Source: a virus
Taxonomy: Duplodnaviria; Heunggongvirae; Uroviricota; Caudoviricetes
Strand: one strand, 5' to 3'
Length of the DNA: 40,402 nt
Virus record (IMG/VR): IMGVR_UViG_2529292883_000006
Shown here one piece after another: positions 1-40,402 of the stretch; within the stretch, counting starts at the first letter, position 1, and every line of letters starts with the position of its first letter. The notes under the pieces are model-generated. The model worked only from the letters and a program-made list of their open reading frames with translations. It did no database searches and had not been told where the DNA came from. Position numbers and translations under genes: made by a program.

Positions 1-669
1 TCATGCGTCAGCGGATTCACCCCCCCCCGCCGCCAGCGTCGCGCCAAGCGTTGCTAGTTCAACAGTATTGATGAGCGTGGAGCACTGACGGGTGTACACG
101 TCACAGGCTTCCATTGCATCACAATAGAGATATCCGGCGGAGTACAGCAGCCAGGCAATGGCCCGGTTATGGAAGTTGGTTGTTTGTTCCGACTGGTTGA
201 CTTCGTCAGAGAGCGCTACCAGCTCACCAGCCAGTTGCTGTTGGATATGTAAAATTCGCTGCCAGCGTTGTTCGGCATTTTCAGCGTTAATCAGGCTGGT
301 GGTGGCAATAGCGCCAGCATTTACCAGTGGCGACAGCGGTTTGCCGCCATGCAACTCTAAGGCGATAACTGAGTTAAAGGGCAATCCGGTCGGGTCAGCG
401 CCAATTTTGTCCTGTACCGCCTGCGGGCCGACATCTTCTAACGCAAGGGCTAACGTACAGACTTTCGAGATGGATTCCAGCGCAAAGCGGTAATCACTGT
501 CACCCGCACTATAGACGTTGCCATCGCAGGTCACGATAGCCACTGCCGCCAGTTGACCTGGTACATTCGCCAGAAAGGGAATGTAATCGGCATTTTGTCC
601 GCCGTTAAGTGAGTGAAATTGGGTGTAAGCCTGATCCACTGCCTGCTGTAATTTGTTTGCATCTAACAT
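1..669 (-). CDS. glsA: Glutaminase (GlsA/YbaS family); 222 codons, reading frame closes at a stop on the window edge immediately after a 9-nt C homopolymer (pos 20-28)
   Basis: Translation MLDANKLQQAVDQAYTQFHSLNGGQNADYIPFLANVPGQ... matches enterobacterial glutaminase 1 as I recall it. The recalled family length is ~310 aa; an alternative frame past the poly-C tract reads VNPLTH, suggesting frameshift or sequencing error. Confidence 0.85.
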   Translation of the reverse strand: MLDANKLQQAVDQAYTQFHSLNGGQNADYIPFLANVPGQLAAVAIVTCDGNVYSAGDSDYRFALESISKVCTLALALEDVGPQAVQDKIGADPTGLPFNSVIALELHGGKPLSPLVNAGAIATTSLINAENAEQRWQRILHIQQQLAGELVALSDEVNQSEQTTNFHNRAIAWLLYSAGYLYCDAMEACDVYTRQCSTLINTVELATLGATLAAGGGESADA

Positions 670-937: not shown

Positions 938-1975
938 TTAACTACCCTCTAAAATCCCCACTTTGCCTCCAAAGTGTGGACACAATGTGGACATTCCCAC
1001 AAGAGGATTATAATTCACTGCATCCAATAAATAATCAGGTGCAAAATGAGCATATGTCATTGTTTGTGAAATATCTGCGTGACCAAGAATTCTTTGTAAC
1101 GCAATTATATTCCCGCCCTTCATCATAAAATGAGTAGCAAACGTATGACGCAATGCATGAGCTGCCTGACCATCAGGTAAATTAGGTTTTGCCTCTTTCA
1201 TTTTTAAACGAAAAGTTTTGTAACTCACACGAAAAAGTCGACCAGATTCGCGATGCCTTACAATATTTACAACCTCATCTGAAACGGGAACAACTCGCCG
1301 ATCACCATTTTTTGTAAGCGTAAATATAACCCTATTGCCCACAATGTTTTCGGCTTTGAGCTGATAAGCCTCACCCCACCTTGCACCAGTTGCAAGCAAG
1401 AGAACTGCAATCCGGAAATAATCACCAGAGCATAAGGATAATAACCGCTTAACCTCAGACTCAGTAAAGTAAGACATCTCAGTTTTTGGCTCTTTTAAAG
1501 CAGATATTGCCGCCACAGGATTTTCACCATGAAACTCATCGATCTCAGCCATCGCCTTAAACATACCGCTCAGGGCAAAAAGGTCATGGTTAATCGTTGA
1601 AGCCTTTATACCTTGCCCCAATCTATACGCCCGGTATTCGATAAGGCATCGACCATCAATCTGGTAAATCATGGGATCCCCCATATCCTGGCAAATACAG
1701 CTTAACGCACTAAGCCTACGATTAGCGTAGTTCTTATTACGTCCAATGAGCTGCCACCACAAAGCGATAAACTCACTCAGTCGCCGCTTGTCTGCTGGAC
1801 GACTCAGGTAGTCATGGTTTTGATACTTTGCAATGATGCTTCGTTCAAAAGCATGCGCCTCCGCTTTTCTCTCAAACTTCCGCCGGATACGCTTTCCGTC
1901 GCGCCCGCGCGGCCTTACATCCACTTCATAGCGACCATCTTCGAGCTTCTTAACAGACACAAGAAGTCCCTCCAA
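938..1975 (-). CDS. int: Tyrosine site-specific integrase (P2 Int-like)
   Basis: 345 aa. The N-terminus KKLEDGRYEVDVRPRGRDGKRIRRKF and the C-terminal HALRHTFATHF...LQRILGHADISQTMTYAHF (catalytic R, H-x-x-R, Y) follow the phage-integrase pattern. It sits adjacent to attL. Confidence 0.9.
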   Translation of the reverse strand: MEGLLVSVKKLEDGRYEVDVRPRGRDGKRIRRKFERKAEAHAFERSIIAKYQNHDYLSRPADKRRLSEFIALWWQLIGRNKNYANRRLSALSCICQDMGDPMIYQIDGRCLIEYRAYRLGQGIKASTINHDLFALSGMFKAMAEIDEFHGENPVAAISALKEPKTEMSYFTESEVKRLLSLCSGDYFRIAVLLLATGARWGEAYQLKAENIVGNRVIFTLTKNGDRRVVPVSDEVVNIVRHRESGRLFRVSYKTFRLKMKEAKPNLPDGQAAHALRHTFATHFMMKGGNIIALQRILGHADISQTMTYAHFAPDYLLDAVNYNPLVGMSTLCPHFGGKVGILEGS

Positions 1976-2029: not shown

Positions 2030-2329
2030 TTAACCAATCTGTTTCCCGGAGGGGCCAGATTGTGTTGTCTCTGGCCCAGTGTGTGCAAGAGCCGGGGCGA
2101 TCTGACCTCGGCTAGGGTCTATACGGTCATACATGAACCAATCTTGATATTTATGGAAACGGGGATGACCAAAGAGTTTGATCGCAGCCTCCAATGACAT
2201 TTTCGCCTTGCCTAGCTCATAACCGTTGTACGTACCATAATTTACACCAATCAAATCAGCAACTTGCTTAGATTTAAGGCGTTCTGAATCTCGGATTAAC
2301 TGTAGTTTTTCATGTTGTGGTATTGACAT
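2030..2329 (-). CDS. Immunity repressor, P2 C-like (HTH)
   Basis: 99 aa with the motif ...GQIAPALAH... and an HTH segment (QVADLIGVNYGTYNGYELG). It lies immediately upstream of int on the same strand, as in P2. Confidence 0.8.
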   Translation of the reverse strand: MSIPQHEKLQLIRDSERLKSKQVADLIGVNYGTYNGYELGKAKMSLEAAIKLFGHPRFHKYQDWFMYDRIDPSRGQIAPALAHTGPETTQSGPSGKQIG

Positions 2330-4303: not shown

Positions 4304-4549
4304 GTGATGGGCAAAGAATATAAAACTCTCATTAACAAAGCACTTGAGCGTTTTTATTTTCGCTTAAGTGCATCAGGCGCTCATGCTGAACGTGCAGCCC
4401 GTGACTCATTGACCAGGGCAATCCGGAGTCTGTATGACGTGGCTTTTTACGCTGATGATCTGGATGCACTTAACGAACTTTCCGAGCTTATCTGTGCAGC
4501 AGAATGTGGGGAACATATTGAACCGTATAAGCTGGGGAATATTGCATGA
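4304..4549 (+). CDS. Hypothetical early protein (81 aa)
   Basis: ORF with GGGTG-type RBS region upstream. Confidence 0.5.
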   Translation: MMGKEYKTLINKALERFYFRLSASGAHAERAARDSLTRAIRSLYDVAFYADDLDALNELSELICAAECGEHIEPYKLGNIA

Positions 4550-4659: not shown

Positions 4660-4751
4660 CAGCTTAAACAAAACACCAGATTAAACCCGAAAATCTGAAA
4701 ACTATCCGCATTCGCGGAGGTATTCGCACACGTAAATAACGGAGATATAAA

Positions 4752-5168
4752 ATGAACGCAAAAGAAGAAGGCATTATCGACACATTAAAAAAAATATCAG
4801 AAGCGGAAGATGAAATGGCTAAAGATGCCGTGAAGCGTAGCCAACATATGGCAGCACTTCACGCACTGACCATTGCAAAAATCACCGCTGACGCAGCCAA
4901 AATTATTGAGGAACAGAGCAAAGAAATCGACACTCTTAAAACACAGTCAACAGTTGCAGCCATGAATCCGTCCAGCATTGGACGCTGCATTTATATTCTT
5001 GGTTCAGCAATGATGCTGCAATACACCATTATTGCCGAACTGCACGGCAAATACCTGATAACGCCTTACCACACAAAAGAGTCAGAGCTTCTGACAAATA
5101 TCCGCCTGATAGAACGCTCTCAAGCTGTATTCATTGATGACGCGCAACGTGCCGTATTTAACGCATAG
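4752..5168 (+). CDS. Hypothetical early protein (138 aa)
   Basis: ORF with GGAG RBS (cggagatataaaATG). Confidence 0.5.
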   Translation: MNAKEEGIIDTLKKISEAEDEMAKDAVKRSQHMAALHALTIAKITADAAKIIEEQSKEIDTLKTQSTVAAMNPSSIGRCIYILGSAMMLQYTIIAELHGKYLITPYHTKESELLTNIRLIERSQAVFIDDAQRAVFNA

Positions 5169-5191
5169 GGTTACTGGACAAAGGGGGCGCA

Positions 5192-5395
5192 ATGGCAATT
5201 AAGCATTTTTCCGTCGTTCGCTTTACCTCCAGAGGGCGCGAATACGAGGTCGACGAACGCCTGATTACCACTATCGACAAACATCGTTCGGAAAAGGATG
5301 CACACCACATCTACCTCACTGACGGCACTTACTTCTGCGCCACCAACGTGGCGCGAGTAAATCTTATCCGACAGGTACAGGAGCCACGCAGATGA
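5192..5395 (+). CDS. Hypothetical early protein (67 aa)
   Basis: ORF with GGGGG RBS; its stop overlaps the next start. Confidence 0.45.
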   Translation: MAIKHFSVVRFTSRGREYEVDERLITTIDKHRSEKDAHHIYLTDGTYFCATNVARVNLIRQVQEPRR

Positions 5396-5658
5396 CCATT
5401 CTGGACTACATCGCTACTCATCCGGGGTGTAGCGGCGGAGAGATCGCCGCAGCACTGAATACCCCAACCACAGCCATTAATGCTGAGTTACGCCAACTTT
5501 GGCGCGGCGGCTTAGTCATCAGAACAAACCGCAGCACAGGTGGTCGCGCTCGCAAAACTGGAGGCCAGGCTTCTTACCACGTAAACCCGATGCCGTTCGG
5601 GTGTAGCAATCCACTTATTCACATGTTTAACCAGCTACTGAAGGAAGCCAGAACATGA
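5392..5658 (+). CDS. Putative winged-helix DNA-binding protein (88 aa)
   Basis: Translationally coupled ORF. The segment GGEIAAALNTPTTAINAELRQLWRGGLV resembles an HTH/wHTH recognition region. Confidence 0.5.
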   Translation: MTILDYIATHPGCSGGEIAAALNTPTTAINAELRQLWRGGLVIRTNRSTGGRARKTGGQASYHVNPMPFGCSNPLIHMFNQLLKEART

Positions 5659-5954
5659 GCACCATCAACCACCAGAAGCTACGCGAACTGGCATTTGCCC
5701 TGCAACGAATGGCAACTCCTCAAAAATTACTGGCATTTCGCGCAATGCTCTCGCCGTCTGCTGTGCTGGCACTGCTGGATGAGCTGGAGCACGCCAGAAC
5801 CACGGCTCCTGCCATTCGCCTGACACTCCATCATGAAATCAAGGATTTCTGCGCGACGCTGGAGTCACCAGGTGAATCAGAAACACCGGAGGCAATGCAG
5901 CAAGAGCTGCTGCAACGCATTGACAAGGTTTTCGATTTTTTCCTTAACCAGTAA
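5655..5954 (+). CDS. Hypothetical early protein (99 aa)
   Basis: Coupled ORF (ATGA overlap). Confidence 0.5.
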   Translation: MSTINHQKLRELAFALQRMATPQKLLAFRAMLSPSAVLALLDELEHARTTAPAIRLTLHHEIKDFCATLESPGESETPEAMQQELLQRIDKVFDFFLNQ

Positions 5955-5964
5955 GGGCCGCAAC

Positions 5965-6168
5965 ATGAACAACAAGACATGGTTTCGTGCATATGCATGG
6001 GCGCTGGTATGCGTCCTCGTCTCTCTCATTCTGTATGTAGGGGTACTCCCCCGAATGATTTCATCAGACAGCTCCTTCCTGGTATTGCTGGGCATTTTCA
6101 TTGCCATGCTGTACCCGGCAGGCGTTGTTCGCCTTTTCAGTAAGTACATCAAGGAAATTAAACAATGA
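5965..6168 (+). CDS. Small two-TM membrane protein (67 aa), coupled to the downstream SPFH gene
   Basis: Translation has two hydrophobic helices (WALVCVLVSLILYVGVL; FLVLLGIFIAMLY). AAGGG RBS. Its stop overlaps the ATG of the next gene. Confidence 0.5.
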   Translation: MNNKTWFRAYAWALVCVLVSLILYVGVLPRMISSDSSFLVLLGIFIAMLYPAGVVRLFSKYIKEIKQ

Positions 6169-6995
6169 AGAAATTCAGACTCTTTCAGATTCTCCCGCTT
6201 TTTGCCGCCATCCTGCTGGTTGGCTGCGATCGCGTTGAGCCAGGTAATGTGGGCATCAAAGTCAACAAGCTGGGCGACGACAAAGGCGTTGGCGAAGTGG
6301 TTGGCGTTGGTCGCTACTGGACTGGCTGGAATACCGAGGTTTACATCTTCCCGACCTTCAAACAAATGAAGACCTACGATGAGCCGTTCAGCTTTCAGAT
6401 GAGTGACGGCACAACCATCGGCTATCACATCGGTGTGGCCTACAAGGTTGATCCATCCAAAGTTACTACAGTGTTTCAGACCTACCGCAAAGGCGTGGAT
6501 GACATTACCGACACTGACCTGCGCCAGAAGATCGCCGACGCACTCAACCGACTGGCCAGCAAAATGACCACCGATAAATTTATCGACGGTGGCAAGTCTG
6601 AACTGCTGGATTCAGCACTTAAAGACATTCAGGCAGAAATGACACCTATCGGCATTCAGGTAATGAGCCTCTCTTATGTCGGTAAACCGGAATACCCACC
6701 AACCGTTATCGACAGCATTAATGCCAAAGTCACGGCAAACCAGAAAACTCTGCAACGCGAGCAGGAAGTCAAGCAACGCGAAGCAGAAGCCAACATGCTG
6801 CGCGCAGAAGCTGCCGGACAAGCTGATGCCATTCGCACAAAAGCCCAGGCTGAAGCCGACGCCATTCGTTTGCGCGGTGAAGCTCTGCGTCAGAATCCCG
6901 GCGTTATGGAGCTGGAAGCGATTAACAAATGGAACGGCACGCTGCCGCAATACATGACCAGTAATACCGCTGTTCCGTTTGTTCCGGTGAAGTAA
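6165..6995 (+). CDS. SPFH/Band-7 (prohibitin/stomatin-like) domain lipoprotein
   Basis: Signal peptide with lipobox (LLVGC). The C-terminal Ala/Glu-rich coiled-coil stretch (EQEVKQREAEANMLRAEAAGQADAIRTKAQAEADAIR) is typical of SPFH proteins. Confidence 0.75.
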   Translation: MKKFRLFQILPLFAAILLVGCDRVEPGNVGIKVNKLGDDKGVGEVVGVGRYWTGWNTEVYIFPTFKQMKTYDEPFSFQMSDGTTIGYHIGVAYKVDPSKVTTVFQTYRKGVDDITDTDLRQKIADALNRLASKMTTDKFIDGGKSELLDSALKDIQAEMTPIGIQVMSLSYVGKPEYPPTVIDSINAKVTANQKTLQREQEVKQREAEANMLRAEAAGQADAIRTKAQAEADAIRLRGEALRQNPGVMELEAINKWNGTLPQYMTSNTAVPFVPVK

Positions 6996-7000
6996 TTAAA

Positions 7001-7046
7001 CCCGGCCAGTGAAAATCGCTGGCCGGAGCAGTATCAGGATTTTTTA
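7001..7046 (+). terminator. Putative intrinsic terminator after the early operon
   Basis: Hairpin ccggccag...ctggccgg followed at a distance by a T-run (ttttt at 7041-7045). Confidence 0.4.
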
Positions 7047-7362
7047 GTATGCCGTTCTCACAAAAAAACCGCTTGCCATGCCGCAATCAGTCAGGTTACA
7101 TTTCCGCTGCACCTCATAAAACGGGTGCCGGGATTTCCACCCCGCTGACAACTACAGCGCACAACCGCGCCAGCGGTTTTTTTGTGCGTACTGTATCGCC
7201 ACGTCTTTTTCGCACACGAATTATGGTGGGGCGTATGGGGCCGACTTCGGTCGGGCCGGGTTCTGTAGTTGCCGGTTGTGGAAACCCTGTACGTCTCACC
7301 ACCCCGAGTTTTCCACCTCTGGATGGTGAGTTTTCAAAACTTGCAACTACAGAGGCCACACC

Positions 7363-7593
7363 ATGGCAAACCGCAAACATCACCGCGCTATCGCGGAGCG
7401 TCGTCACATCCAGACTGAAATCGATCGCAGACTCACCCGCGCTGCACACATCGCCTTTATCATGCAATCCAACACATTGCACAGACTCAACAGCACTATT
7501 TCAGCCGACTACTGCGCCGCTGTATTCAGCTATCTGGCGGAAGACCTCCTGTCTCTTCAGGATCTCATCCAGCAGCAAAACAAACTCCATTAA
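7363..7593 (+). CDS. Hypothetical small protein (76 aa), weakly supported
   Basis: ORF preceded by ~300 bp of structured non-coding sequence and followed by a stem-loop at 7603-7636. Weak RBS. Confidence 0.3.
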   Translation: MANRKHHRAIAERRHIQTEIDRRLTRAAHIAFIMQSNTLHRLNSTISADYCAAVFSYLAEDLLSLQDLIQQQNKLH

Positions 7594-7687
7594 TTCCTGT
7601 TCCAGGCCTCTCCTGCGCTTTGCAGCGGGAGGCCTGCGCACACCTATAACAAGGAGATTAGCTATGGCTAATGTTTTTGTTTACTCA

Positions 7688-8101
7688 TTATTTAAAGGGG
7701 GATTCGTCACCCCCTTCAAAATCATCATCGTCAAAATAATCATCGAAATCATCATCATCTTCTTCGGGCGCAGGAGGGTTTACAGGAATATCAACAAGTT
7801 TCATTTTTCCACTTGCTATATCAGCCTTTACTTTTGGCAAGGCAAAAACCGCGTCATATCCGCGAAAAACCTCCCCATCACCAAGAATATTGGTGAGCCC
7901 GAGTCTTTTCAAAAACTCACAAATAGAAACGTAATCTCCAAGCCCAGAACCGGTAATAGCTCGGTAAATAAATCCATTATGAAAAAGAGCAACTGGATAG
8001 GGAGCTGCTCCCCACGGATCTCGAGGACGCCCCTCAAGCCACAGACTTATTTTTTCATCGTAATCAGGTCGTTCGCACTCTCTTGTATATCGATGTTTCA
8101 T
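7688..8101 (-). CDS. Hypothetical protein with strongly acidic C-terminal tail (EEDDDDFDDYFDDDDFEGGDE), opposite orientation to the early operon
   Basis: 137-aa ORF on the minus strand with its own upstream region (8102-8199). Composition is unlike the overlapping frames. Confidence 0.6.
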   Translation of the reverse strand: MKHRYTRECERPDYDEKISLWLEGRPRDPWGAAPYPVALFHNGFIYRAITGSGLGDYVSICEFLKRLGLTNILGDGEVFRGYDAVFALPKVKADIASGKMKLVDIPVNPPAPEEDDDDFDDYFDDDDFEGGDESPFK

Positions 8102-8199
8102 TGGTTTTTTCTCTCTTTTTACATGGAAATAAATAATTTACGAAACACAACCACTAACCGCCAAGCCCCTAATGAAAATTTATACAAGAGGGGAGTTGT

Positions 8200-8589
8200 A
8201 TGATTGACCATCATGACTTCGTAAAATGGGTGCGCCCACAGGACACCCGTCTGGCTCCCGTTCTCCAGGGATTATTTGATCTCTACATCCGTGGTCGTGA
8301 CAACAGAGCGCGCACTACAAAACCGGAGAATGCGGACACCCTTTATTTCACAGTAGACGACTGCTACCGCGTGGACTTCACACCACACGGACTGGCGTTG
8401 CACTGCCTGACACCGCACGGCGAATCACTGCTGGCGTATTACGACTCCCCGGCCTCCGTATTTGCGGCAATGCTGGCGCATCGCACTGCTGGCGGGTGTG
8501 CCTCGCTGAGTGAATACACCGCTGAGTTTAACCGCCTTTCCGCCCTCTTCTCACAGGAGTGGCAGCGCGTGACGGGATACCAGCCATGA
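8200..8589 (+). CDS. Hypothetical protein upstream of and coupled to gene A
   Basis: RBS agaggggag before the ATG. Its stop overlaps the gene A ATG (ATGA at 8586-8589). Confidence 0.55.
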   Translation: MIDHHDFVKWVRPQDTRLAPVLQGLFDLYIRGRDNRARTTKPENADTLYFTVDDCYRVDFTPHGLALHCLTPHGESLLAYYDSPASVFAAMLAHRTAGGCASLSEYTAEFNRLSALFSQEWQRVTGYQP

Positions 8590-11426
8590 GTGAGTTTGCA
8601 TGGAGCTGGAATGAACCACGGCCAGCCATTGATCCGGCCAGATTTACGGAGCGCAGGCAGGAAACTGAAACCGACCTGCAACGCGCCATCCGTTACTACC
8701 TTGAGGCAGACAAAAAGGCCCAGGAAGAACAGGAAGCGAAAGAGGAAGCCTTTTTCGCACAATCCGCCATGGGTAAAAAACTCATGGCATCCCTTGAGGA
8801 AGCCGGACAGCGTGAAGAGCTGGCACAAAGCATCATCAGCAAGCGTCAGGCAACAGAACAAGACCCGGTGGCCCGTGCTTTTGCCACACTGAAGGTGCTT
8901 CCCGTTTATCTGCGTGAACCACTGAGCCGCCGCCTCTCTTTTTTACGTAAGAAGCAGGAATCTGACCGCCAGAAAGGCAAAAAGAGTCGACCAGCAGAGG
9001 GCTACGCACGCGGAACCCTGCGCAAAATATTCGAACGTCTGGATCGCACTGACGGGCGCTGGCTGACACCGGGTTATCGCTCCCTTGCCGGACGCGAACG
9101 CCTGGACGATTTGCTTTACCTGCCGCAGCTCAACAAACACCAGATACAGACGCTGGCCACCATGACGGCGGCGATGTTCAGCAGCACCTTCGAAAAACTC
9201 TGCGATGGCTTTGGCGCGACCGATGGCGAACTGACCATGGATGTAACGCTGAAGGCGTATCAGATGCTGGCCCGCATGGCGTTACACCTGCACGCCATGC
9301 CTCCACATTATGACGCACTGACAACAGACAAAGACCAGAGGAACGAACCGGACACGGAGCTGCTGCCGGGCGCAATCCTTCGCCTGACCTGTGCAGAATG
9401 GTGGAAACGCAAACTGTGGCTGTTACGTTGCGAGTGGAGAGAAGAACAACTCCGCGCCGCCTGTCTGGTTTCCAGAAAAACATCGCCCTATCTGAGCCAG
9501 GACGCGTTAAGCGAGTTTCGCGCACAGCGCGAGAAAACACGCGATTTCCTGAAAAGTTTCATGCTGGAAAATGAAGACGGGTTCACGATTGATCTCGAGA
9601 CGGTGTATTACGCGGGAGTAAGTAACCCGGTTCACCGTAAGGCAGAAATGATGGCCACCATGAAGGGGCTGGAACTTCTGGCCGAAGCCCGTGGCGACAA
9701 AGCGGTGTTTCTGACTGTCACCTGCCCGTCAAAATACCACGCCACAACAGAGAACGGTCATCCGAATCCCAAATGGAACGGGGCCACCATGCGCGACTCC
9801 AGCGATTACCTGGTTAACACGTTTTTTGCGGCGGTCCGCAAAAAACTGAACCGCGACGGTCTTCGCTGGTATGGCATCCGCACGGTGGAGCCTCACCATG
9901 ACGGCACCGTGCACTGGCATATGATGGTCTTTGCTCATCCGGAAGAAATCGACAGCATCGTGGCCATCACCCGCGATATTGCCATTCAGGAAGACCGCCA
10001 CGAGCTGGGCAATGATATTACTCCGCGCTTTAAGGCAGAGTACGTCGACGGTTCGAAAGGTACGCCGACCAGCTACATCGCCACCTACATCGGAAAGAAC
10101 CTGGACAGCCGCGCCGTGGATGGCATTGACCCGAAAACAGGCAAACCGCGCATCGACGACGAATCAGGAAAGACGATGGCAGAAAGCGTGGAACGCGCCA
10201 TCGGCTGGGCGCGCCTTCACCGGGTCCGCCAGTTCCAGTTCTTTGGCATCCCTTCCCGTCAGGTGTGGCGTGAACTGCGCCGCCTTGCCTGTCAGATGGC
10301 ACGTAACCCACAGGGACCGCAACGTCTGGAAAATGACGCAATGGATGCGGTTCTTGCTGCCGCTGATGCCGGATGTTTTGCCACCTACATAGAGAAACAG
10401 GGCGGCGTGCTTGTTCCACGCAAAGACTACCTGATTCGCACCGCCTACGACCTCGCAGATGAACTGAACGATTACGGCGAGCAGAGTGTACAGATTTACG
10501 GGATCTGGTCGCCGCTCATCGGGGAGTCTTCCCGCGTGTGCACGCACCCGGATAACTGGAAGCTGGTAAGACGTAAACCGGAAGCGGAAGACAGCGCCCG
10601 CGAAAATGGTTTTGACCTTCAGGGCGGCCCTGCCGCCCCTTGGACTCGTGGCAATAACTGTCCCCGTGTACAGGAAACGGACAACAACGGGACAGAACAG
10701 CCGGAAGAACGGCCAGCACCGTGGCCGCAGCTCCCTGACGGCGTTGAAGTGAACGAATGGATGCGCTCACTGAAACGGCACGAACGCCGGGCGCTGATGC
10801 GTTCGCTGCGTGACAAACAGGCAAAAAACAGCAGTGATGAAATGCAGAGCTGGACACAGAGCCACAAACAGCCGCGACCTTTGCCTGATAACCACGAGTT
10901 ACTCGCTAAAGAATGGCGGGAGTCTGCCGAATCTCTCGGCCTGCATATCGGTGAACAGCAGATGCAGCACCTGTTACGGGGCGGCAGCCTGTACGTTGAC
11001 GGCAGCATCATTGCACCGCAGGGATTTGAAATTGTACGCAAACCGGATACCCGCCCGGACAGCCGAATCACGCAGCTCTGGCAACGCCTGAGCCGTAATC
11101 ACGGCGTAAGCAGCACGGAGATCCGCCATAACCCGGTCGCCGGCTATCTGGAGCAGCTGGGGGCATCAGACCCCGAAGCCGCCGCACGCCTGGCATCCAC
11201 ACTTCAGCAGGACCAGAACACCATGAAAACCCCCGTTACCGTGCTTTCTGACATGTTGCGCGCCATCCGTGACGCAGAGCACGCACAGAGAATCAGTGAA
11301 ACCACTGAACGCGCCCACCGCAAAGCAGACCTGCTGCGGGGTAGCCTGACCAGTGGAAACAAAAAACAGACAGAAACGGGATTCACAAATCCCGTAAATG
11401 AGCAAAAAACGTGCCGCGATATATGA
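8586..11426 (+). CDS. Rolling-circle replication initiator (P2 gpA-like HUH endonuclease), 946 aa
   Basis: HUH motif (GTVHWHMMVF) and paired catalytic tyrosines (SYIATYIGK). Position corresponds to P2 gene A. The start at 8586 is chosen from translational coupling. Confidence 0.85.
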   Translation: MSEFAWSWNEPRPAIDPARFTERRQETETDLQRAIRYYLEADKKAQEEQEAKEEAFFAQSAMGKKLMASLEEAGQREELAQSIISKRQATEQDPVARAFATLKVLPVYLREPLSRRLSFLRKKQESDRQKGKKSRPAEGYARGTLRKIFERLDRTDGRWLTPGYRSLAGRERLDDLLYLPQLNKHQIQTLATMTAAMFSSTFEKLCDGFGATDGELTMDVTLKAYQMLARMALHLHAMPPHYDALTTDKDQRNEPDTELLPGAILRLTCAEWWKRKLWLLRCEWREEQLRAACLVSRKTSPYLSQDALSEFRAQREKTRDFLKSFMLENEDGFTIDLETVYYAGVSNPVHRKAEMMATMKGLELLAEARGDKAVFLTVTCPSKYHATTENGHPNPKWNGATMRDSSDYLVNTFFAAVRKKLNRDGLRWYGIRTVEPHHDGTVHWHMMVFAHPEEIDSIVAITRDIAIQEDRHELGNDITPRFKAEYVDGSKGTPTSYIATYIGKNLDSRAVDGIDPKTGKPRIDDESGKTMAESVERAIGWARLHRVRQFQFFGIPSRQVWRELRRLACQMARNPQGPQRLENDAMDAVLAAADAGCFATYIEKQGGVLVPRKDYLIRTAYDLADELNDYGEQSVQIYGIWSPLIGESSRVCTHPDNWKLVRRKPEAEDSARENGFDLQGGPAAPWTRGNNCPRVQETDNNGTEQPEERPAPWPQLPDGVEVNEWMRSLKRHERRALMRSLRDKQAKNSSDEMQSWTQSHKQPRPLPDNHELLAKEWRESAESLGLHIGEQQMQHLLRGGSLYVDGSIIAPQGFEIVRKPDTRPDSRITQLWQRLSRNHGVSSTEIRHNPVAGYLEQLGASDPEAAARLASTLQQDQNTMKTPVTVLSDMLRAIRDAEHAQRISETTERAHRKADLLRGSLTSGNKKQTETGFTNPVNEQKTCRDI

Positions 11427-11502: not shown

Positions 11503-12462
11503 ATGAAAATTTGTATCGACGACGGCTCCACCAACATCAAGCTGGCATGGACTGAGAACGGCGAACGCCGCAACGCCATCAGCCCGAACAGCTTCAAGTC
11601 GGAATGGTCTGCGCCGTTCGGTGGCACGCAGCCCGCGAACTACATGCTTGATGGCGTGCGCTATGGTTTTGATCCGGTCAGCGATCGCTTTGTCCAGACG
11701 ACCGACACGCAATACCAGTACAGCGATGTGAATGTCATCGCCGTTCATCACGCGCTGGTCAAATCAGGCATCACGCCACAGGAGGTGGATGTGGTTGTCA
11801 CCCTGCCACTGAGCGAGTATTTCGACACAAACGCACAACCGGACATGGCCAACATCAACCGCAAAAAAGCGAACGTTATGCGCCCGGTGGAGTACCAGAA
11901 CGGCGAGGCATTCACTATCCGTAACGTGCGGGTTATGCCTGAATCCATTCCGGCTGGCTTTAAAGCACTGGCTGACATGAGTCCGTTTGAATCCCTGCTG
12001 ATTGTGGATTTGGGCGGAACCACGCTGGATGTGGCAAAGGTTCAGGGGCAACTGGCAGGTATCAGCCAGGTGTTTTGCGATCCACACGTAGGCGTTTCTC
12101 TGATGGCCGATGCCGTGCTGTCGGTGATGGCCACCAACGGTATGCGCACCAGTCACCACATCGCCAATACCATTATCGAACATCGCCACGATGAAGCCTG
12201 GCTGCGCCAGCACATCCACAATGACGCGCATTACGCCAGTCTGATGGCAGTTATTCGTGAAAAGGAGGAAACACTGAAACAACGCGTGATCCGCGCGCTG
12301 GCGGGTTTTTCGGGTTACGGGCGGGTGATGGTTGTCGGTGGAGGAGCGGAGATTGTGGCACCCGCTATCCGCGAAGCCTGCGGAGTTAATGCGACTTTCA
12401 TCGCGGACGGGGTGCCACAGTTTGCTCTGGTTAATGGGCTGTACGCAATGGACAAGGAGTAA
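11503..12462 (+). CDS. parM: Actin-like segregation ATPase, ParM/StbA family
   Basis: 319 aa. Translation begins MKICIDDGSTNIKLAW and carries ISPNSFK, YSDVNVIAVHHAL, VMPESIPAG, DLGGTTLD, GGGAE and LVNGLY motifs, which align along the whole length with plasmid R1 ParM as I recall it. Confidence 0.85.
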   Translation: MKICIDDGSTNIKLAWTENGERRNAISPNSFKSEWSAPFGGTQPANYMLDGVRYGFDPVSDRFVQTTDTQYQYSDVNVIAVHHALVKSGITPQEVDVVVTLPLSEYFDTNAQPDMANINRKKANVMRPVEYQNGEAFTIRNVRVMPESIPAGFKALADMSPFESLLIVDLGGTTLDVAKVQGQLAGISQVFCDPHVGVSLMADAVLSVMATNGMRTSHHIANTIIEHRHDEAWLRQHIHNDAHYASLMAVIREKEETLKQRVIRALAGFSGYGRVMVVGGGAEIVAPAIREACGVNATFIADGVPQFALVNGLYAMDKE

Positions 12463-12466
12463 ATCA

Positions 12467-12781
12467 ATGACGACACCAACCAGACGGATAAGTTTCTATC
12501 TGAAGCCCGCCGTCGTCAAGAGCGAACGGGAGGCGTGCAGCTACCTCGACAGCCTGCCAGCCTCCGAACGCAGCCGCGCACAACGCGCGGCTTTTCTGGC
12601 CGGACTGGCTCTTATAAAACGCACCCCCGCGTTGGCGTATTCGCTGGCAGAATGGTCAGAAGACGAAATACGGATGCCACCGCTACCAGTACAGCCTGAA
12701 AAACCGGCGCAACCAGCAGCAGACAGCGCCCCCCATATGCAGCAGGTGAAAAAGAATATTCAGGCGTTTTTCCCGAAGTGA
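12467..12781 (+). CDS. parR: ParR/StbB-like centromere-binding adaptor
   Basis: 104 aa immediately downstream of parM with an AGGAG RBS. The N-terminus RISFYLKP...SERSRAQRAAFLAGLAL resembles the R1 ParR ribbon-helix-helix region. Confidence 0.7.
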   Translation: MTTPTRRISFYLKPAVVKSEREACSYLDSLPASERSRAQRAAFLAGLALIKRTPALAYSLAEWSEDEIRMPPLPVQPEKPAQPAADSAPHMQQVKKNIQAFFPK

Positions 12782-22910: not shown

Positions 22911-23207
22911 ATGCAGGAGCATGAGCGCACCATTATCACTCTGGGCATTCTGGGCGGAATCGCTGCCGCAAGTCGGGTGCTGGCTGGCGCAGAGCCGATT
23001 ACGTTGCGGTTGTTTGTGGGCCGAACCCTGCTGGGGAGCGCGCTGGGTGTTTCTGCCGCTGCCCTGCTGGTTCGCTACCCGAACCTTGACCCACTGGCCA
23101 TTGCCGGCGCAGGCACCGCAATGGGCGTTGCCGGTTACCAGATTGTTGAAATCTTCCTGCGTCATATGCGCCGGAAGCTGGGCGAGAAAGAGAACAAAGA
23201 GGAGTAA
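22911..23207 (+). CDS. Putative holin (membrane protein with charged C-terminus)
   Basis: 98 aa with 2-3 hydrophobic segments and a KEKENKEE tail. Lies upstream of the endolysin. Confidence 0.45.
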   Translation: MQEHERTIITLGILGGIAAASRVLAGAEPITLRLFVGRTLLGSALGVSAAALLVRYPNLDPLAIAGAGTAMGVAGYQIVEIFLRHMRRKLGEKENKEE

Positions 23208-23316
23208 CAGCAATGCTGTCCCGCAGGGAACAAAAAGCTGCCGCCATTGCCTGGAAAATTATCCGGGCACTGTGGTACTGGCTGCGCAAACCTCAGCAAC
23301 CTCATAAGGAGCAAAA

Positions 23317-23658
23317 ATGAAACTCTCCGATAAGCAACAACAATTTACCGTCATGATCGGAAAACTCATCCAGTTTGCCCATCAGCGCGGTTATGGCCTG
23401 ACGTTCGGTGAGGCGTACCGCACGCCAGAACAGGCAAAACTCAACGCACAAAAGGGATCCGGCATTGCCAACAGCCTGCACTGCCAGCGGCTGGCCGTGG
23501 ATTTTAATCTGTTTATTAACGGTGAATATCAGACCCGCACAGAGGCCTACCGAGAGCTGGGCGAGTACTGGGAATCCCTTGGTGGCGCATGGGGCGGTCG
23601 TTTTAAAAACCGCCCGGATGGCAATCATTTCAGCCTTGAGCACGACGGCGTGCGCTGA
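23317..23658 (+). CDS. Endolysin, peptidase M15 (VanY / L-Ala-D-Glu peptidase-like) family
   Basis: 113 aa with zinc-ligand motifs SLHCQRLAVD and DGNHFSLEH typical of M15 peptidases. Confidence 0.7.
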   Translation: MKLSDKQQQFTVMIGKLIQFAHQRGYGLTFGEAYRTPEQAKLNAQKGSGIANSLHCQRLAVDFNLFINGEYQTRTEAYRELGEYWESLGGAWGGRFKNRPDGNHFSLEHDGVR

Positions 23659-36593: not shown

Positions 36594-37166
36594 ATGACTA
36601 AATATATTTTTGCTCTTTATTTTATATTATTTGGTAATACGAAACATCTATTCGAATGCTGGAAAGTTGAAGTCATCCGTCGCGATCGATTTTTAATTCA
36701 TCGCCTACTAAGAGAGAAGAGATCACGCTCAAGAAAATACATCTTCTGGTGGAGACTTGCAAATGAAATGTTTATCCATGGCGGGAAATATACAAAAAAA
36801 GCAGCGAAGAAAATCAACCGCAAATTACTCAGTGAATACAGCTGTGATCTTGGTCTAGGGCTGACCGTTGGCAAGGGTCTGACAATTATCCATCACACGG
36901 GCATCGTTGTTACCAGTACGGCAATCATTGGAGAAAATCTGACCATCAGACAAAATACAACCATTGGTCGTAGTCAATCGGATAATGAACACGATAGAAT
37001 AACAATTGGCAATAACGTTGATATTGGCGCCCACTCATTCATTCTGGGCTCTGGTTTTAAAATTGGAGATAATGTCAAGATCGGGGCAATGTCATTTATC
37101 ATGGATGAAATTCCTTCAAACTGTACTTATGTCACCCGGAAAGAATCAAGGATAATATCTAAGTAA
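36594..37166 (+). CDS. Hexapeptide-repeat acetyltransferase (serine O-acetyltransferase / CysE-like left-handed beta-helix)
   Basis: Repeated [LIV]-G-x4 hexapeptides (GLTVGKGLTIIHHTGIVVTSTAIIGENLTI...IGNNVDIGAHSFILGSGFKIGDNVKIGAMSFI). AT-rich relative to the prophage core. Confidence 0.7.
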   Translation: MTKYIFALYFILFGNTKHLFECWKVEVIRRDRFLIHRLLREKRSRSRKYIFWWRLANEMFIHGGKYTKKAAKKINRKLLSEYSCDLGLGLTVGKGLTIIHHTGIVVTSTAIIGENLTIRQNTTIGRSQSDNEHDRITIGNNVDIGAHSFILGSGFKIGDNVKIGAMSFIMDEIPSNCTYVTRKESRIISK

Positions 37167-37287
37167 AATTAAAACTCAACCAATTACCACAAAAAACGCA
37201 GCGTAAAATCATGTGTTTACTTTTTGCCCCCTTGAGGGGGCATTTAAATATCAACAACATTCACAAAAACGAACTAATAAAACGAAA

Positions 37288-37604
37288 TCACTCCCCATTC
37301 TCCCGCTTCCATTGCTGGATCATTTCATCGGTGACATCACTCCCATAACATATCACGTTATATCCTCCACTACGACTATATGCACTGCGCCACCACATCT
37401 ACTACCATTCCTTGCATAATTATAAGGACACGCACAATTACCTGGATACGATTCAATAGATTCTTTAATTATTTCTTTCTTGATCTGAGCGTCAGACTTT
37501 TCAGTTGCCGCATATCCACCAAAAGACACCAAACAAAGGCAGATTACTATTAATAAACCACATCGCATACAGATACTCTCTATCAATAACCAATCACAAA
37601 TCAC
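37288..37604 (-). pseudogene. Small Cys-rich secreted protein with apparent frameshift
   Basis: The 37353-37604 ORF has a signal-peptide-like N-terminus and Cys-rich motif (GNCACPYNYARNGSRCGG). A second frame starting at the GG stays open to 37288 (RSAYSRSGGYNVICYGSDVTDEMIQQWKRENGE). Confidence 0.35.
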
Positions 37605-37818
37605 CTCATAAATTGATATGAGGAGTGCAACGCCTTAAGCAGGAAGACGCAACCTCGATAATATGCAGTGCAATTCAACAAAAAAAGAACTATATCAAAG
37701 AGATAGCACCCTTATCAGTGCTGCAAACACTAGCGTTTGCAGCAACAAAAAACAACAAATCAGTCGAAATGTGGACACTATGTGGACGCTGATTAAATAA
37801 TCCTTTCCTAATCAACAA

Positions 37819-37846
37819 ATTAATTTCTTGACCTTCCCCTTGCTGG
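37819..37846. repeat. attR core (right copy of 28-bp direct repeat)
   Basis: Exact repeat of 852-879. It is followed by the intact copA promoter sequence. Confidence 0.7.
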
Positions 37847-37860
37847 AAGGTTTAACCTTT
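37828..37860 (+). promoter_or_regulatory. copA promoter with CueR (MerR-type) operator dyad
   Basis: -35 ttgacc followed by the dyad ccttcc-N7-ggaagg (accttccccttgctggaaggt) and tttaacc, ~40 bp upstream of the copA ATG. The long spacer is typical of MerR-family promoters. Confidence 0.7.
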
Positions 37861-37897
37861 ATCACAGCCAGTCAAAACTGTCTTAAAGGAGTGTTTT

Positions 37898-40402
37898 ATG
37901 TCACAAACTATCGACCTGACCCTGTACGGCCTGTCCTGCGGTCACTGCGTTAAACGCGTGAAAGAAAGTCTCGAACAGCGCCCGGATGTGGAACAAGCGG
38001 ATGTGTCTATCACTGAAGCGCACGTTACCGGGACTGCCAGTGCAGAACAGCTGATCGAAACTATCAAACAAGCGGGTTATGACGCATCTGTAAGCCACCC
38101 AAAGGCTAAACCGCTGGCGGAGTCATCAATCCCGTCGGAAGCACTGACAGCGGTTTCTGAGGCGCTTCCGGCAGCGACCGCCGATGACGATGACAGCCAG
38201 CAGTTGCTGCTGAGCGGCATGAGCTGCGCCAGCTGTGTCACCCGCGTACAAAATGCGTTGCAAAGCGTACCGGGCGTCACTCAGGCACGGGTAAACCTGG
38301 CGGAGCGTACTGCGCTGGTGATGGGCAGTGCCTCCCCACAAGATTTAGTGCAGGCGGTGGAAAAAGCGGGCTACGGCGCGGAAGCGATTGAAGATGACGC
38401 GAAACGCCGCGAGCGCCAGCAAGAAACCGCCGTCGCTACGATGAAGCGCTTCCGCTGGCAGGCAATTGTTGCACTGGCGGTGGGTATCCCGGTAATGGTC
38501 TGGGGGATGATCGGCGATAACATGATGGTCACCGCTGACAACCGCAGCCTGTGGTTGGTTATCGGCCTGATAACCCTGGCGGTAATGGTTTTCGCCGGCG
38601 GCCATTTTTACCGCAGTGCATGGAAAAGCCTGCTGAACGGTGCGGCGACGATGGATACGCTGGTGGCGCTGGGTACGGGTGTGGCGTGGCTCTATTCGAT
38701 GAGCGTCAACCTGTGGCCGCAGTGGTTCCCGATGGAAGCGCGGCATCTTTACTATGAAGCCAGTGCGATGATTATCGGTCTGATTAATCTCGGTCATATG
38801 CTGGAAGCGCGCGCACGTCAGCGTTCTTCTAAGGCGCTGGAGAAATTACTCGATTTAACCCCACCGACGGCGCGCCTGGTTACTGACGAAGGTGAAAAAA
38901 GCGTGCCTCTGGCAGAAGTGCAGCCAGGTATGTTGCTGCGCCTGACGACCGGCGACCGCGTGCCAGTAGATGGCGAGATTACCCAGGGCGAAGCATGGCT
39001 GGATGAAGCGATGCTGACGGGCGAACCTATCCCGCAGCAAAAAGGCGAAGGCGATAGCGTCCATGCCGGGACAGTGGTACAGGACGGTAGCGTTCTGTTT
39101 CGCGCCAGTGCGGTTGGCAGCCATACCACGCTATCAAGGATTATTCGTATGGTGCGCCAGGCCCAGAGCAGCAAGCCAGAAATCGGTCAGCTGGCGGATA
39201 AAATCTCAGCCGTATTTGTGCCGGTAGTAGTGGTGATTGCGCTTTTCAGTGCGGCAATCTGGTATTTCTTTGGTCCGGCACCGCAGATTGTCTATACCCT
39301 GGTGATTGCCACCACGGTGCTGATTATTGCCTGTCCGTGTGCGCTGGGGCTGGCGACGCCGATGTCGATTATTTCCGGCGTCGGGCGGGCGGCTGAGTTT
39401 GGCGTGCTGGTGCGGGACGCCGACGCGCTACAACGCGCCAGTACACTCGATACCGTCGTGTTCGATAAAACCGGGACGCTGACCGAAGGGAAGCCGCAGG
39501 TTGTCGCAGTGAAAACATTTGCTGATTTTGACGAAGCGCAGGCGCTGCGTCTGGCGGCGGCACTGGAACAAGGTTCCAGCCATCCGCTGGCGCGGGCGAT
39601 CCTCGATAAAGCAAGCGATATGCAGCTGCCGCAGGTCAACGGTTTCCGCACATTGCGCGGGCTGGGCGTGAGCGGTGAAGCTGAAGGTCATGCGTTATTG
39701 CTGGGCAATCAGGCGCTGTTAAATGACCAGCAAGTTGATACTAAAGCGATTGAAGCAGATATTTCAGCTCAGGCATCGCAAGGGGCAACGCCTGTGCTGC
39801 TGGCGGTTGACGGGAAAGCGGTAGCCCTGCTGGCTGTACGCGATCCGTTGCGTAGTGATAGCGTGGCGGCGCTGCAACGTCTGCATAAAGCGGGATATCG
39901 TCTGGTGATGTTGACCGGGGATAACCCAACCACCGCCAATGCGATCGCCAAAGAAGCCGGGATTGATGAGGTGATAGCCGGGGTGCTGCCAGACGGTAAA
40001 GCCGAAGCGATCAAACGTCTGCAAAGTGAAGGACGTCAGGTGGCAATGGTGGGCGACGGCATTAACGACGCGCCAGCGCTGGCCCAGGCGGATGTCGGCA
40101 TTGCAATGGGCGGCGGCAGTGATGTTGCCATTGAAACCGCGGCGATTACCCTGATGCGCCATAGCCTGATGGGCGTTGCGGATGCGCTCGCTATTTCCCG
40201 CGCAACGCTGCGCAACATGAAGCAGAACCTGCTCGGCGCGTTTATCTACAACAGTATCGGTATTCCGGTCGCCGCCGGTATTTTGTGGCCGTTTACTGGA
40301 ACACTGCTTAACCCGGTAGTTGCCGGAGCGGCAATGGCGCTCTCGTCGATTACCGTAGTGAGTAACGCCAACCGGTTGCTGCGGTTTAAACCGAAGGAAT
40401 AA
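37898..40402 (+). CDS. copA: Copper-exporting P1B-type ATPase CopA
   Basis: 834 aa. Two N-terminal GMxCxxC metal-binding motifs (GLSCGHC, GMSCASC), CPC in the TM domain, DKTGT phosphorylation motif, GDGINDAP. Stop at the window end. Confidence 0.95.

Follow-up and report, generated by a model that had tools for sequence, protein, structure and literature searches.

SPFH proteins are universal membrane organisers whose rings and cages have been seen by recent cryo-electron microscopy, and the locus described here raises the question of what a phage might do with such a protein when it is encoded together with a very small membrane protein. The locus lies in a 40,402-nucleotide (nt) stretch of viral DNA (IMG/VR record IMGVR_UViG_2529292883_000006), referred to throughout as the window, which is a segment of an E. 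coli-type chromosome holding a complete P2-type prophage of the P88-like kind (Xuanwuvirus). On the plus strand, at 5965-6995, the gene for a 67-residue protein overlaps the gene for a 276-residue SPFH lipoprotein. Our best explanation of the whole, to which we give a probability of about 0.45, is that the pair is a mobile and optional early-lytic membrane module in which a ring of the SPFH protein would surround its hairpin partner, altering the inner membrane during phage growth. The comparisons that follow establish the anatomy of the genes, the families to which they belong, their status as a cassette, their pairing across phages and their setting among early genes.

The gene pair and its products

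The elements of the locus are as follows.

5965-6168, plus strand: open reading frame (ORF) of the small partner, a 67-residue protein with two predicted transmembrane segments (hydrophobicity; PHROG 1130)
6165-6168, plus strand: ATGA stop/start overlap, with TGA at 6166-6168 over ATG at 6165-6167
6165-6995, plus strand: SPFH/Band_7 (prohibitin-like) lipoprotein, 276 residues (Pfam, PHROG, AlphaFold2 model, Foldseek)
7002-7026, plus strand: perfect GC-rich hairpin of 11 bp closing the cassette (RNA folding)
5958-7058, plus strand: accessory cassette comprising both genes and the trailing hairpin, a 1,083-bp insertion/deletion (blastn against relatives)

A first-pass annotation, made from the sequence without database searches, had described a two-transmembrane protein of 67 residues overlapping by ATGA the start of a 276-residue SPFH lipoprotein, and each of these elements was recovered in our analysis. 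The hidden Markov model (HMM) search that it had proposed assigned the larger protein to Band_7 (PF01145) with E=7.6e-31 and 107.9 bits against a cut-off of 23.6, residues 23-209 matching the full model, and PHROG 200 matched at E=6e-112. The N-terminus, MKKFRLFQILPLFAAILLVGC followed by DR, is a lipoprotein signal, with a signal peptide of residues 1-20, the lipobox LVGC and, as the predicted lipidated residue, Cys21 (6225-6227), behind which stand Asp22 at position +2 and Arg at +3. The N-terminal membrane attachment by which SPFH proteins are recognised would thus be provided by a lipid anchor, as read from this sequence motif. An AlphaFold2 monomer model (29-sequence alignment, mean predicted local distance difference test score, pLDDT, 71.6) has strands within residues 20-95, then helices, which together form the SPFH alpha/beta domain; one long helix at 179-243 and a low-confidence tail come after it. 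Searched with Foldseek, the model returned PHB1/2, HflK/C, erlin, stomatin, flotillin and QmcA at E values of 1e-13 to 3e-7; a probability of 1.00 at 14-19% identity was obtained for prohibitin, HflK/C, erlin, stomatin, flotillin, major vault protein (MVP) and QmcA. With a Band_7 score above threshold, an SPFH fold and a long helix, the protein belongs to the SPFH superfamily.

The C-terminus carries a conserved motif, KWNGxLP...PF, in which K-W-[ND]-G-x-x-P is invariant across 14 diverse phage homologues (24-93% identity), as are the individual residues C21, W256, G258 and P261. In the monomer model the pLDDT of this motif falls below 50, and a segment that is invariant yet modelled with low confidence is what would be expected of an oligomer interface, perhaps one that folds only in the oligomer.

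The small partner has two hydrophobic segments, at about residues 6-33 and 34-58, and basic termini, from which a hairpin with both ends on the inner side (N-in/C-in) is predicted. Its loop, here LPRMISSDSS, follows the motif P-x-[ML]-[IV]-S-x-x-D-[ST], and Pro29 is invariant in two alignments of partner homologues. The proposed HMM search had a divided outcome for this protein, since PHROG 1130 matched at E=1.6e-20 but neither Pfam (E<=0.01) nor NCBIfam gave a match. Both ORFs are real genes, the small one because its ratio of nonsynonymous to synonymous substitution rates (dN/dS) is 0.2-0.4 (22 DNA variants) and because of the PHROG 1130 match; a Shine-Dalgarno-like AAGGG lies 7 nt 5' of it. 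Databases already hold both families, as PHROG 200 'lipoprotein' and PHROG 1130 'membrane protein' (filed under morons). Against the defence models of PADLOC-DB v2, the SPFH protein had no match and the small protein one marginal, insignificant and partial match (PDC-M18B, E=0.008, 14.2 bits).

The ATGA overlap implies, on the face of the sequence, that translation of the two genes is coupled. A Shine-Dalgarno sequence for the SPFH gene, AAGGAA at 6151-6156, lies within the small ORF, and overlaps of 4-20 nt between the partner and SPFH genes are kept in phiP27, KpCHEMY26, S6, CKB-S1, Paxi, phi644-2 and P1-like phages. The early lytic operon runs rightward, opposite the repressor gene, and the pair lies within it, 10 nt after the preceding gene. 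A promoter scan found no promoter-like site within or directly 5' of the cassette, the closest same-strand match being at 4332-4360, some 1.6 kb upstream; a perfect TTGACA at 5920-5925 is present but lacks an acceptable -10 hexamer, and no promoter-like site was found near the P1-like copy of the pair.

Two statements of the first-pass annotation about the downstream side have to be revised, namely that the pair ends the early operon and that a terminator follows it. On the same strand the isrK-like RNA, the C4 RNA, the derepression gene, the ORF at 8200-8589 and gene A all continue beyond the pair. The hairpin at 7002-7026 is very stable (dG -23.5 kcal/mol, z=-3.84, with 0 of 200 shuffles as stable), but the terminator scan made no call at this site and the closest T-run, 7040-7045, begins 13 nt past the stem, so that the hairpin does not qualify as a canonical intrinsic terminator.

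Cassette status and pairing across phages

The status of the pair within its own phage group was assessed by blastn against six relatives. PhiR44_2, P884B11 and 705R2 align collinearly with the window as far as 5955-5975 and again from 7059 onward; in Citrobacter phage Shae_phiSM the slot is taken by another gene, a helix-turn-helix (HTH) gene of 552 nt; and phage 520873 has a larger deletion there. Among the six only Escherichia phage P88 (Xuanwuvirus, Peduoviridae) shares the pair, with 94.8% identity over 5600-7100, and its counterparts are gp11 ('membrane protein') and gp12 ('lipoprotein'). The left edge of the cassette falls after the Ead-like stop, 'CAGTAAG', and the right edge before 'CACAAAAAAACCGCTTGCC'; both edges are clean, with no repeats visible on either side. 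The cassette is therefore a separate piece of added DNA between two genes that lie side by side in relatives, which is one of the marks of a moron. The first-pass annotation had taken the pair for something other than a core phage function and had suggested a look at relatives without it; as PhiR44_2, P884B11 and 705R2 have an otherwise matching early region, the pair is accessory and not core, in agreement with that view.

The same conclusion can be drawn at larger scale, the pair being far from universal. Of 5,426 complete E. coli genomes, about 117 have the cassette in this slot, while about 958 have the slot without it, an empty slot being counted wherever at least 80% of the empty-slot junction was covered. 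Roughly 1 in 10 P88-like early regions thus has the pair. The GC content of the pair (0.50-0.52) is like that of its flanks and gives no sign of foreign origin.

We found that the association of the two genes extends well beyond P88-like phages. Of the SPFH loci that could be assessed, 106 in all, 99 have an ORF with at least two transmembrane segments that ends no more than 30 nt from the SPFH start. These loci belong mostly to close relatives, so that the weight is carried by independent lineages, and the pair is held in P88-like, P1-like and phiP27/lambdoid phages and in three N4-like genera (Klebsiella and Erwinia phages), as well as in Vibrio phage CKB-S1, Stenotrophomonas phage Paxi, Burkholderia phage phi644-2 and a crAss-like phage, with phiCbK having a form with three transmembrane segments. 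When partners were aligned across phages, the proline and the loop motif described above were again found. Vequintavirinae have a three-gene form (partner, a small ribbon-helix-helix-like gene and the SPFH gene), and the same arrangement occurs in a metagenomic relative. In lambdoid prophages the pair stands between the CI-like repressor and xis/int, in a PL-type early operon; in N4-like phages it stands between the RNA polymerase II subunits and dUTPase; and in strictly virulent phages (N4-like, Vequintavirinae) it is found among early or middle genes.

Approached from the partner's side the picture is similar. A partner profile compared with 1.84 billion cluster representatives recovered 610 of them (50% clustering), with a length of 36-106 residues in all of the best 150 of the 610, and by its sequences the partner appears as a diverged family of its own. 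An overlapping Band_7 gene lies 3' of the partner at 12 of 12 genomic places sampled, which cover three partner subfamilies. Among five distant representatives, three overlap a gene for an SPFH lipoprotein, a fourth is separated from such a gene by one other gene, and the fifth is an orphan. All sampled partner contexts look phage-derived. The partner is unannotated in the reference records of phiP27 (2759-2947 of our locus L002), the P1-like RCS47 (2730-2966 of L003) and other P1-like phages, and likewise in the crAss-like phage cr128_1 (L099), where the ORF ends 11 nt into the SPFH gene at 1510; in each of these records a conserved ORF with two transmembrane segments nevertheless overlaps the start of the SPFH gene. 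One NCBI protein of 347 residues (P0019, 8 member sequences) is an in-frame fusion of partner and SPFH protein, joined at a run of A where the genes overlap; it could be a natural Rosetta-stone fusion, or it could reflect a frameshift or sequencing error.

The SPFH gene itself is spread more widely. By tblastn, homologues were found in 716 of 50,697 phage records (~1.4%), many of them of virulent phages, including N4-like phages, Vequintavirinae, Kayvirus, Schiekvirus, phiCbK, crAss-like phages and haloarchaeal viruses, and the hosts of these phages range from E. coli to Staphylococcus and haloarchaea. The gene also passes from one kind of phage to another: the DNA for its mature part is 87-92% identical in phiP27, many Stx2-converting phages and P1-like phage-plasmids. 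This homology begins exactly at the lipobox (window 6216-6222), while the partner gene and the signal peptide have diverged much further from the phiP27/Stx2 and P1-like copies (at most 48% amino-acid identity). Partner and signal peptide seem to have been exchanged as one unit.

In the P1-like RCS47 the pair is flanked by the upl/plp genes on one side and a transfer RNA gene on the other, upstream of a dnaB-like helicase gene, in a stretch taken to be variable. P1-like phage-plasmids of Salmonella and E. coli (our loci L101, L103 and L104, at ~4728-5305) have a Tad2-like gene about 0.7 kb 3' of the pair and then an Lpa-like gene; the Tad2-like gene belongs to Pfam PF11195, the anti-Thoeris sponge family.

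In phages of Gram-negative bacteria, then, an SPFH gene usually travels with a specific hairpin protein of 60-70 residues that is unannotated or 'hypothetical', and the two make up a swappable, coupled cassette. Our literature search found no paper describing this conserved pairing, and the SPFH surveys that it turned up mention neither phages nor lipoproteins.

The early region around the cassette

The prophage and its surroundings contain the following further features.

1-669, minus strand: fragment of a host glutaminase gene at the left end of the window
938-1975, minus strand: integrase
2030-2329, minus strand: HTH repressor
5655-5954, plus strand: Ead/Ea22-like early gene, left flank of the pair (Pfam Ead_Ea22 E=1.3e-4, under the cut-off; PHROG 4144 E=9e-62)
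7073-7102, plus strand: promoter-like site
7109-7183, plus strand: isrK-like small RNA (Rfam isrK 63.6 bits, gathering score 50)
7219-7306, plus strand: C4 antisense RNA (Rfam C4 79.3 bits, gathering score 45)
7363-7593, plus strand: derepression-protein gene, 76 residues
8200-8589, plus strand: ORF
8559-11426, plus strand: replication gene A
22911-23658: holin and endolysin genes, 16 kb from the pair
37898-40402: copA-like P-type (copper) ATPase gene at the right end of the window

The rightward early region includes a DUF4761 gene, a MarR-like gene, the Ead/Ea22-like gene and replication gene A, after which come the terminase and portal genes. From the stop of the Ead/Ea22-like gene to the small ORF there are 10 nt, and this gene is kept in relatives without the cassette. 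Directly after the cassette, 7073-7593 forms a unit resembling P1 immI (promoter-like site, isrK-like small RNA, C4 RNA and derepression gene), and the two RNAs at 7109-7306 are a separate unit, outside the pair. A 384-residue ORF at 7049-8203 overlies both RNAs, as do 618-nt 'transcriptional regulator' genes of PhiR44_2, 705R2 and P884B11 and, on the other strand, P88 gp13; all of these are probably spurious calls.

The early region varies at other places too. A 540-bp insertion at 7660-8199, with a lower GC content (0.43), is missing in all six of the relatives compared and encodes a reverse-strand ORF (7688-8101, 137 residues, PHROG 19905) with no match in Pfam or PADLOC; its hyper-acidic C-terminal tail (EEDDDDFDDYFDDDDFEGGDE) recalls, by composition, DNA-mimic anti-restriction proteins. 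A second presence/absence block lies at 4733-5180 and contains an ORF at 4752-5168 (138 residues, PHROG 9338), which is present in the window, 705R2 and Shae_phiSM and absent from P88, PhiR44_2, P884B11 and 520873. Just 3' of gene A, ParM-like and partition-protein genes (PHROG 691 and 2515) occupy 11503-12781, as they do in P88, and the right flank of the prophage (36594-40402) holds a hexapeptide-repeat transferase gene beside the copA-like copper ATPase gene.

Proposed role, rival readings and known systems

How might such a pair work? Membrane topology, ring assembly, enclosure of the partner and biological role are the parts of our proposal that we infer. Transcription would occur together with that of the early lytic genes, and translation of the two ORFs would be coupled. 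The 67-residue protein would insert in the inner membrane as an N-in/C-in hairpin, reaching the periplasm only by its conserved loop, ISSDSS, while the SPFH protein would be exported, lipidated at Cys21 and probably kept on the periplasmic side of the inner membrane, in its outer leaflet. Asp at +2 is the residue by which E. coli lipoproteins are retained in the inner membrane, and the Asp at +2 here is the reason for predicting retention. The long helix and C-terminal motif would then assemble a ring or dome on the membrane, as in other SPFH proteins, whose general behaviour has been described (PMC12624060, PMC12048511). The ring may fence off a patch of membrane, the hairpin lying inside or under it as an anchor or client, comparable to NfeD with QmcA or FtsH with HflK/C; recruitment of an SPFH protein by membrane partners is reported in a recent preprint (bioRxiv 10.64898/2026.02.06.704340).

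The purpose would be to change the behaviour of the inner membrane while the phage grows, and because the pair occurs in virulent phages and in early lytic operons its job can be placed, provisionally, in the lytic cycle. As a leading guess, DNA entry of a second phage might be blocked, or the envelope might be protected during the latent period. T4 Imm and Sp are early-expressed exclusion proteins of a virulent phage. By analogy with them or with T5 Llp, exclusion during lytic growth is a live possibility, and T5 Llp offers a precedent for an exclusion lipoprotein made early. A more specific version, that the pair is an unrecognised and widespread phage module whose periplasmic SPFH cage, made early, excludes rivals at the step of DNA entry or shields the membrane from depolarising abortive-infection effectors, we regard as doubtful.

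Several points weigh against our proposal. No partner is detectable directly upstream in Kolesnikvirus or in Enterococcus phages, a neighbour with a single transmembrane segment stands in the partner's place in Bruynoghevirus and Kayvirus, and one partner homologue has no adjoining SPFH gene. Contact between the two proteins is suggested solely by the linkage of their genes, and the timing of expression solely by gene position. The Arg after Asp+2 may make retention in the inner membrane imperfect, and in more distant homologues position +2 is Ser, Asn or Glu; on the E. coli rule these proteins would go to the outer membrane and so be separated from the partner. A ring over a small patch of membrane would be no obvious block to DNA entry. 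Authors who noted SPFH genes in phage genomes called the role unclear and offered speculation only, and a functional study, whether of the pair or of an SPFH lipoprotein from any phage, was not found in our literature search.

Of the alternatives, the likeliest is that the pair serves the lysogen, being made constitutively by the prophage for defence or superinfection exclusion in the manner of P22 SieA or lambda Rex. The cassette is accessory, patchy and moron-like, both products belong to the envelope, like many exclusion proteins (SieA, Llp and Ltp), and in P1-like elements the pair lies in a variable region beside the Tad2-like gene. However, the pair is placed within an early lytic operon, 10 nt behind the previous gene and with no promoter-like site directly upstream, its PADLOC search gave nothing convincing (no match with the SPFH protein, and the marginal E=0.008 with the small one), and it is common in strictly virulent phages, which have no lysogen to protect. 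From this context prophage defence is less likely than a role in lytic growth, and we hold it to be fairly improbable. It is more improbable again that the SPFH protein mimics HflK/C in order to modulate FtsH, enclosing or displacing the protease and so stabilising CII-like regulators or membrane proteins, much as lambda CIII does from an early operon of similar type. Such a role was suggested by authors for other phages, and there is some basis for it: HflK chains are the best sequence matches among solved structures (E=7e-4), HflC and HflK are the strongest named NCBIfam matches, HflK/C and PHB are among the top fold matches, and the predicted position of the SPFH domain is on the periplasmic side, where that of HflK/C lies (PMC12048511). 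Yet the family scores are far too low, at 24.8 bits against a cut-off of 134.4 for TIGR01932 (HflC) and 22.7 against 159.4 for TIGR01933 (HflK), prohibitin, erlin and stomatin are equal in fold similarity, and there is a single SPFH gene with a lipid anchor and no transmembrane helix in place of a K/C pair.

Lysis offers another setting, in which the pair would stabilise the membrane or time lysis, keeping the inner membrane energised or restraining the holin until late and thereby raising burst size. In Kayvirus, mbpS and the gene for a small holin-like membrane protein, mbpV, do lie between the endolysin gene lysK and tgl (PMC7150955), and SPFH proteins are tied to membrane-stress responses such as the PspA system. 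In the window, by contrast, the holin and endolysin genes are 16 kb away (22911-23658), and the P2-like, lambdoid and N4-like pairs all sit with early genes and not with lysis genes, and we give this reading only a slim chance. A surface or virulence lipoprotein of lysogenic conversion, acting on the animal host like the HflK/C-like PM0222 of Pasteurella multocida, seems very improbable indeed. That prophage SPFH protein is reported to be released in vesicles, to trigger TLR1/2 signalling and to contribute to virulence (PMC9872710), and uropathogenic UTI89 carries the cassette; but the case comes from one paper, PM0222 is likened to our protein by description only, the family is common among environmental, virulent phages whose hosts are non-pathogens, and TLR2 stimulation is possible with any bacterial lipoprotein.

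Some identifications were considered and set aside. A spanin of the Rz/Rz1 type would share the gene overlap and the lipoprotein, but Asp at +2, a 276-residue SPFH fold and a lysis cassette 16 kb away do not fit. The partner is not an NfeD protein, as it has no NfeD domain and 67 residues are too few for an OB-fold plus two transmembrane segments. A known defence system was rejected on the PADLOC-DB v2 search, which gave no convincing match, and an equivalent of HflK, HflC or FloT on the HflK/HflC scores far under the family cut-offs and the lack of two transmembrane-anchored paralogues.

The pair could be of use beyond this prophage. It is a small and tractable two-gene system, available in P88, UTI89 and N4-like Klebsiella phages, for asking what a virus gains from a membrane scaffold of its own, and it could serve as a minimal model of how SPFH rings choose their membrane clients. 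If exclusion or counter-defence proves true, a new class of mechanism would be added; if control of FtsH does, there would be a link to the classic hfl story of phage lambda.

Comparison with known systems places the pair among several of them without making it equal to any. SPFH-NfeD operons such as E. coli QmcA-YbbJ (PDB 8z5g) similarly have an SPFH gene tightly linked to, and co-oriented with, the gene of a small membrane protein, and QmcA was a fold match at E=3e-7, but the phage partner is only a 67-residue hairpin without NfeD domain or OB-fold, and the SPFH protein is lipid-anchored and not transmembrane-anchored, and phage-borne. With HflK/HflC-FtsH (PDB 7vhp, 7wi3, 9cz2) the phage protein shares an SPFH domain, here predicted to be periplasmic, with a long helix behind it; it differs in having 15-19% identity, one type of subunit where HflK/HflC has two, and no transmembrane helix. 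In B. subtilis, YdjG/YdjH-YdjI (SamGHI) acting with PspA is a further parallel, in that small membrane proteins are encoded beside an SPFH protein and recruit it, whereas that SPFH protein is cytosolic, chromosomal and part of a stress operon; the likeness of the partners is one of description only.

Closer in kind are other phage proteins. MbpV-MbpS of Kayvirus (Staphylococcus phage K group) is a phage SPFH protein, 24% identical and sharing the KWNG motif, encoded directly after the gene of a small membrane protein; in contrast to our pair, its partner has one transmembrane segment and a long charged tail, and the genes lie in the lysis region of a phage with a Gram-positive host. T5 Llp and T4 Imm/Sp are, like the products of our pair, small envelope proteins or lipoproteins that are early, non-essential and patchy, but they have no relation to it in sequence or fold, and Llp is a small outer-membrane lipoprotein that plugs a receptor. 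What is new in the locus presented here, set beside these systems, is that an operon of an SPFH gene and its partner is carried by a phage, that its SPFH protein has a lipid anchor and that the partner is a minimal hairpin.

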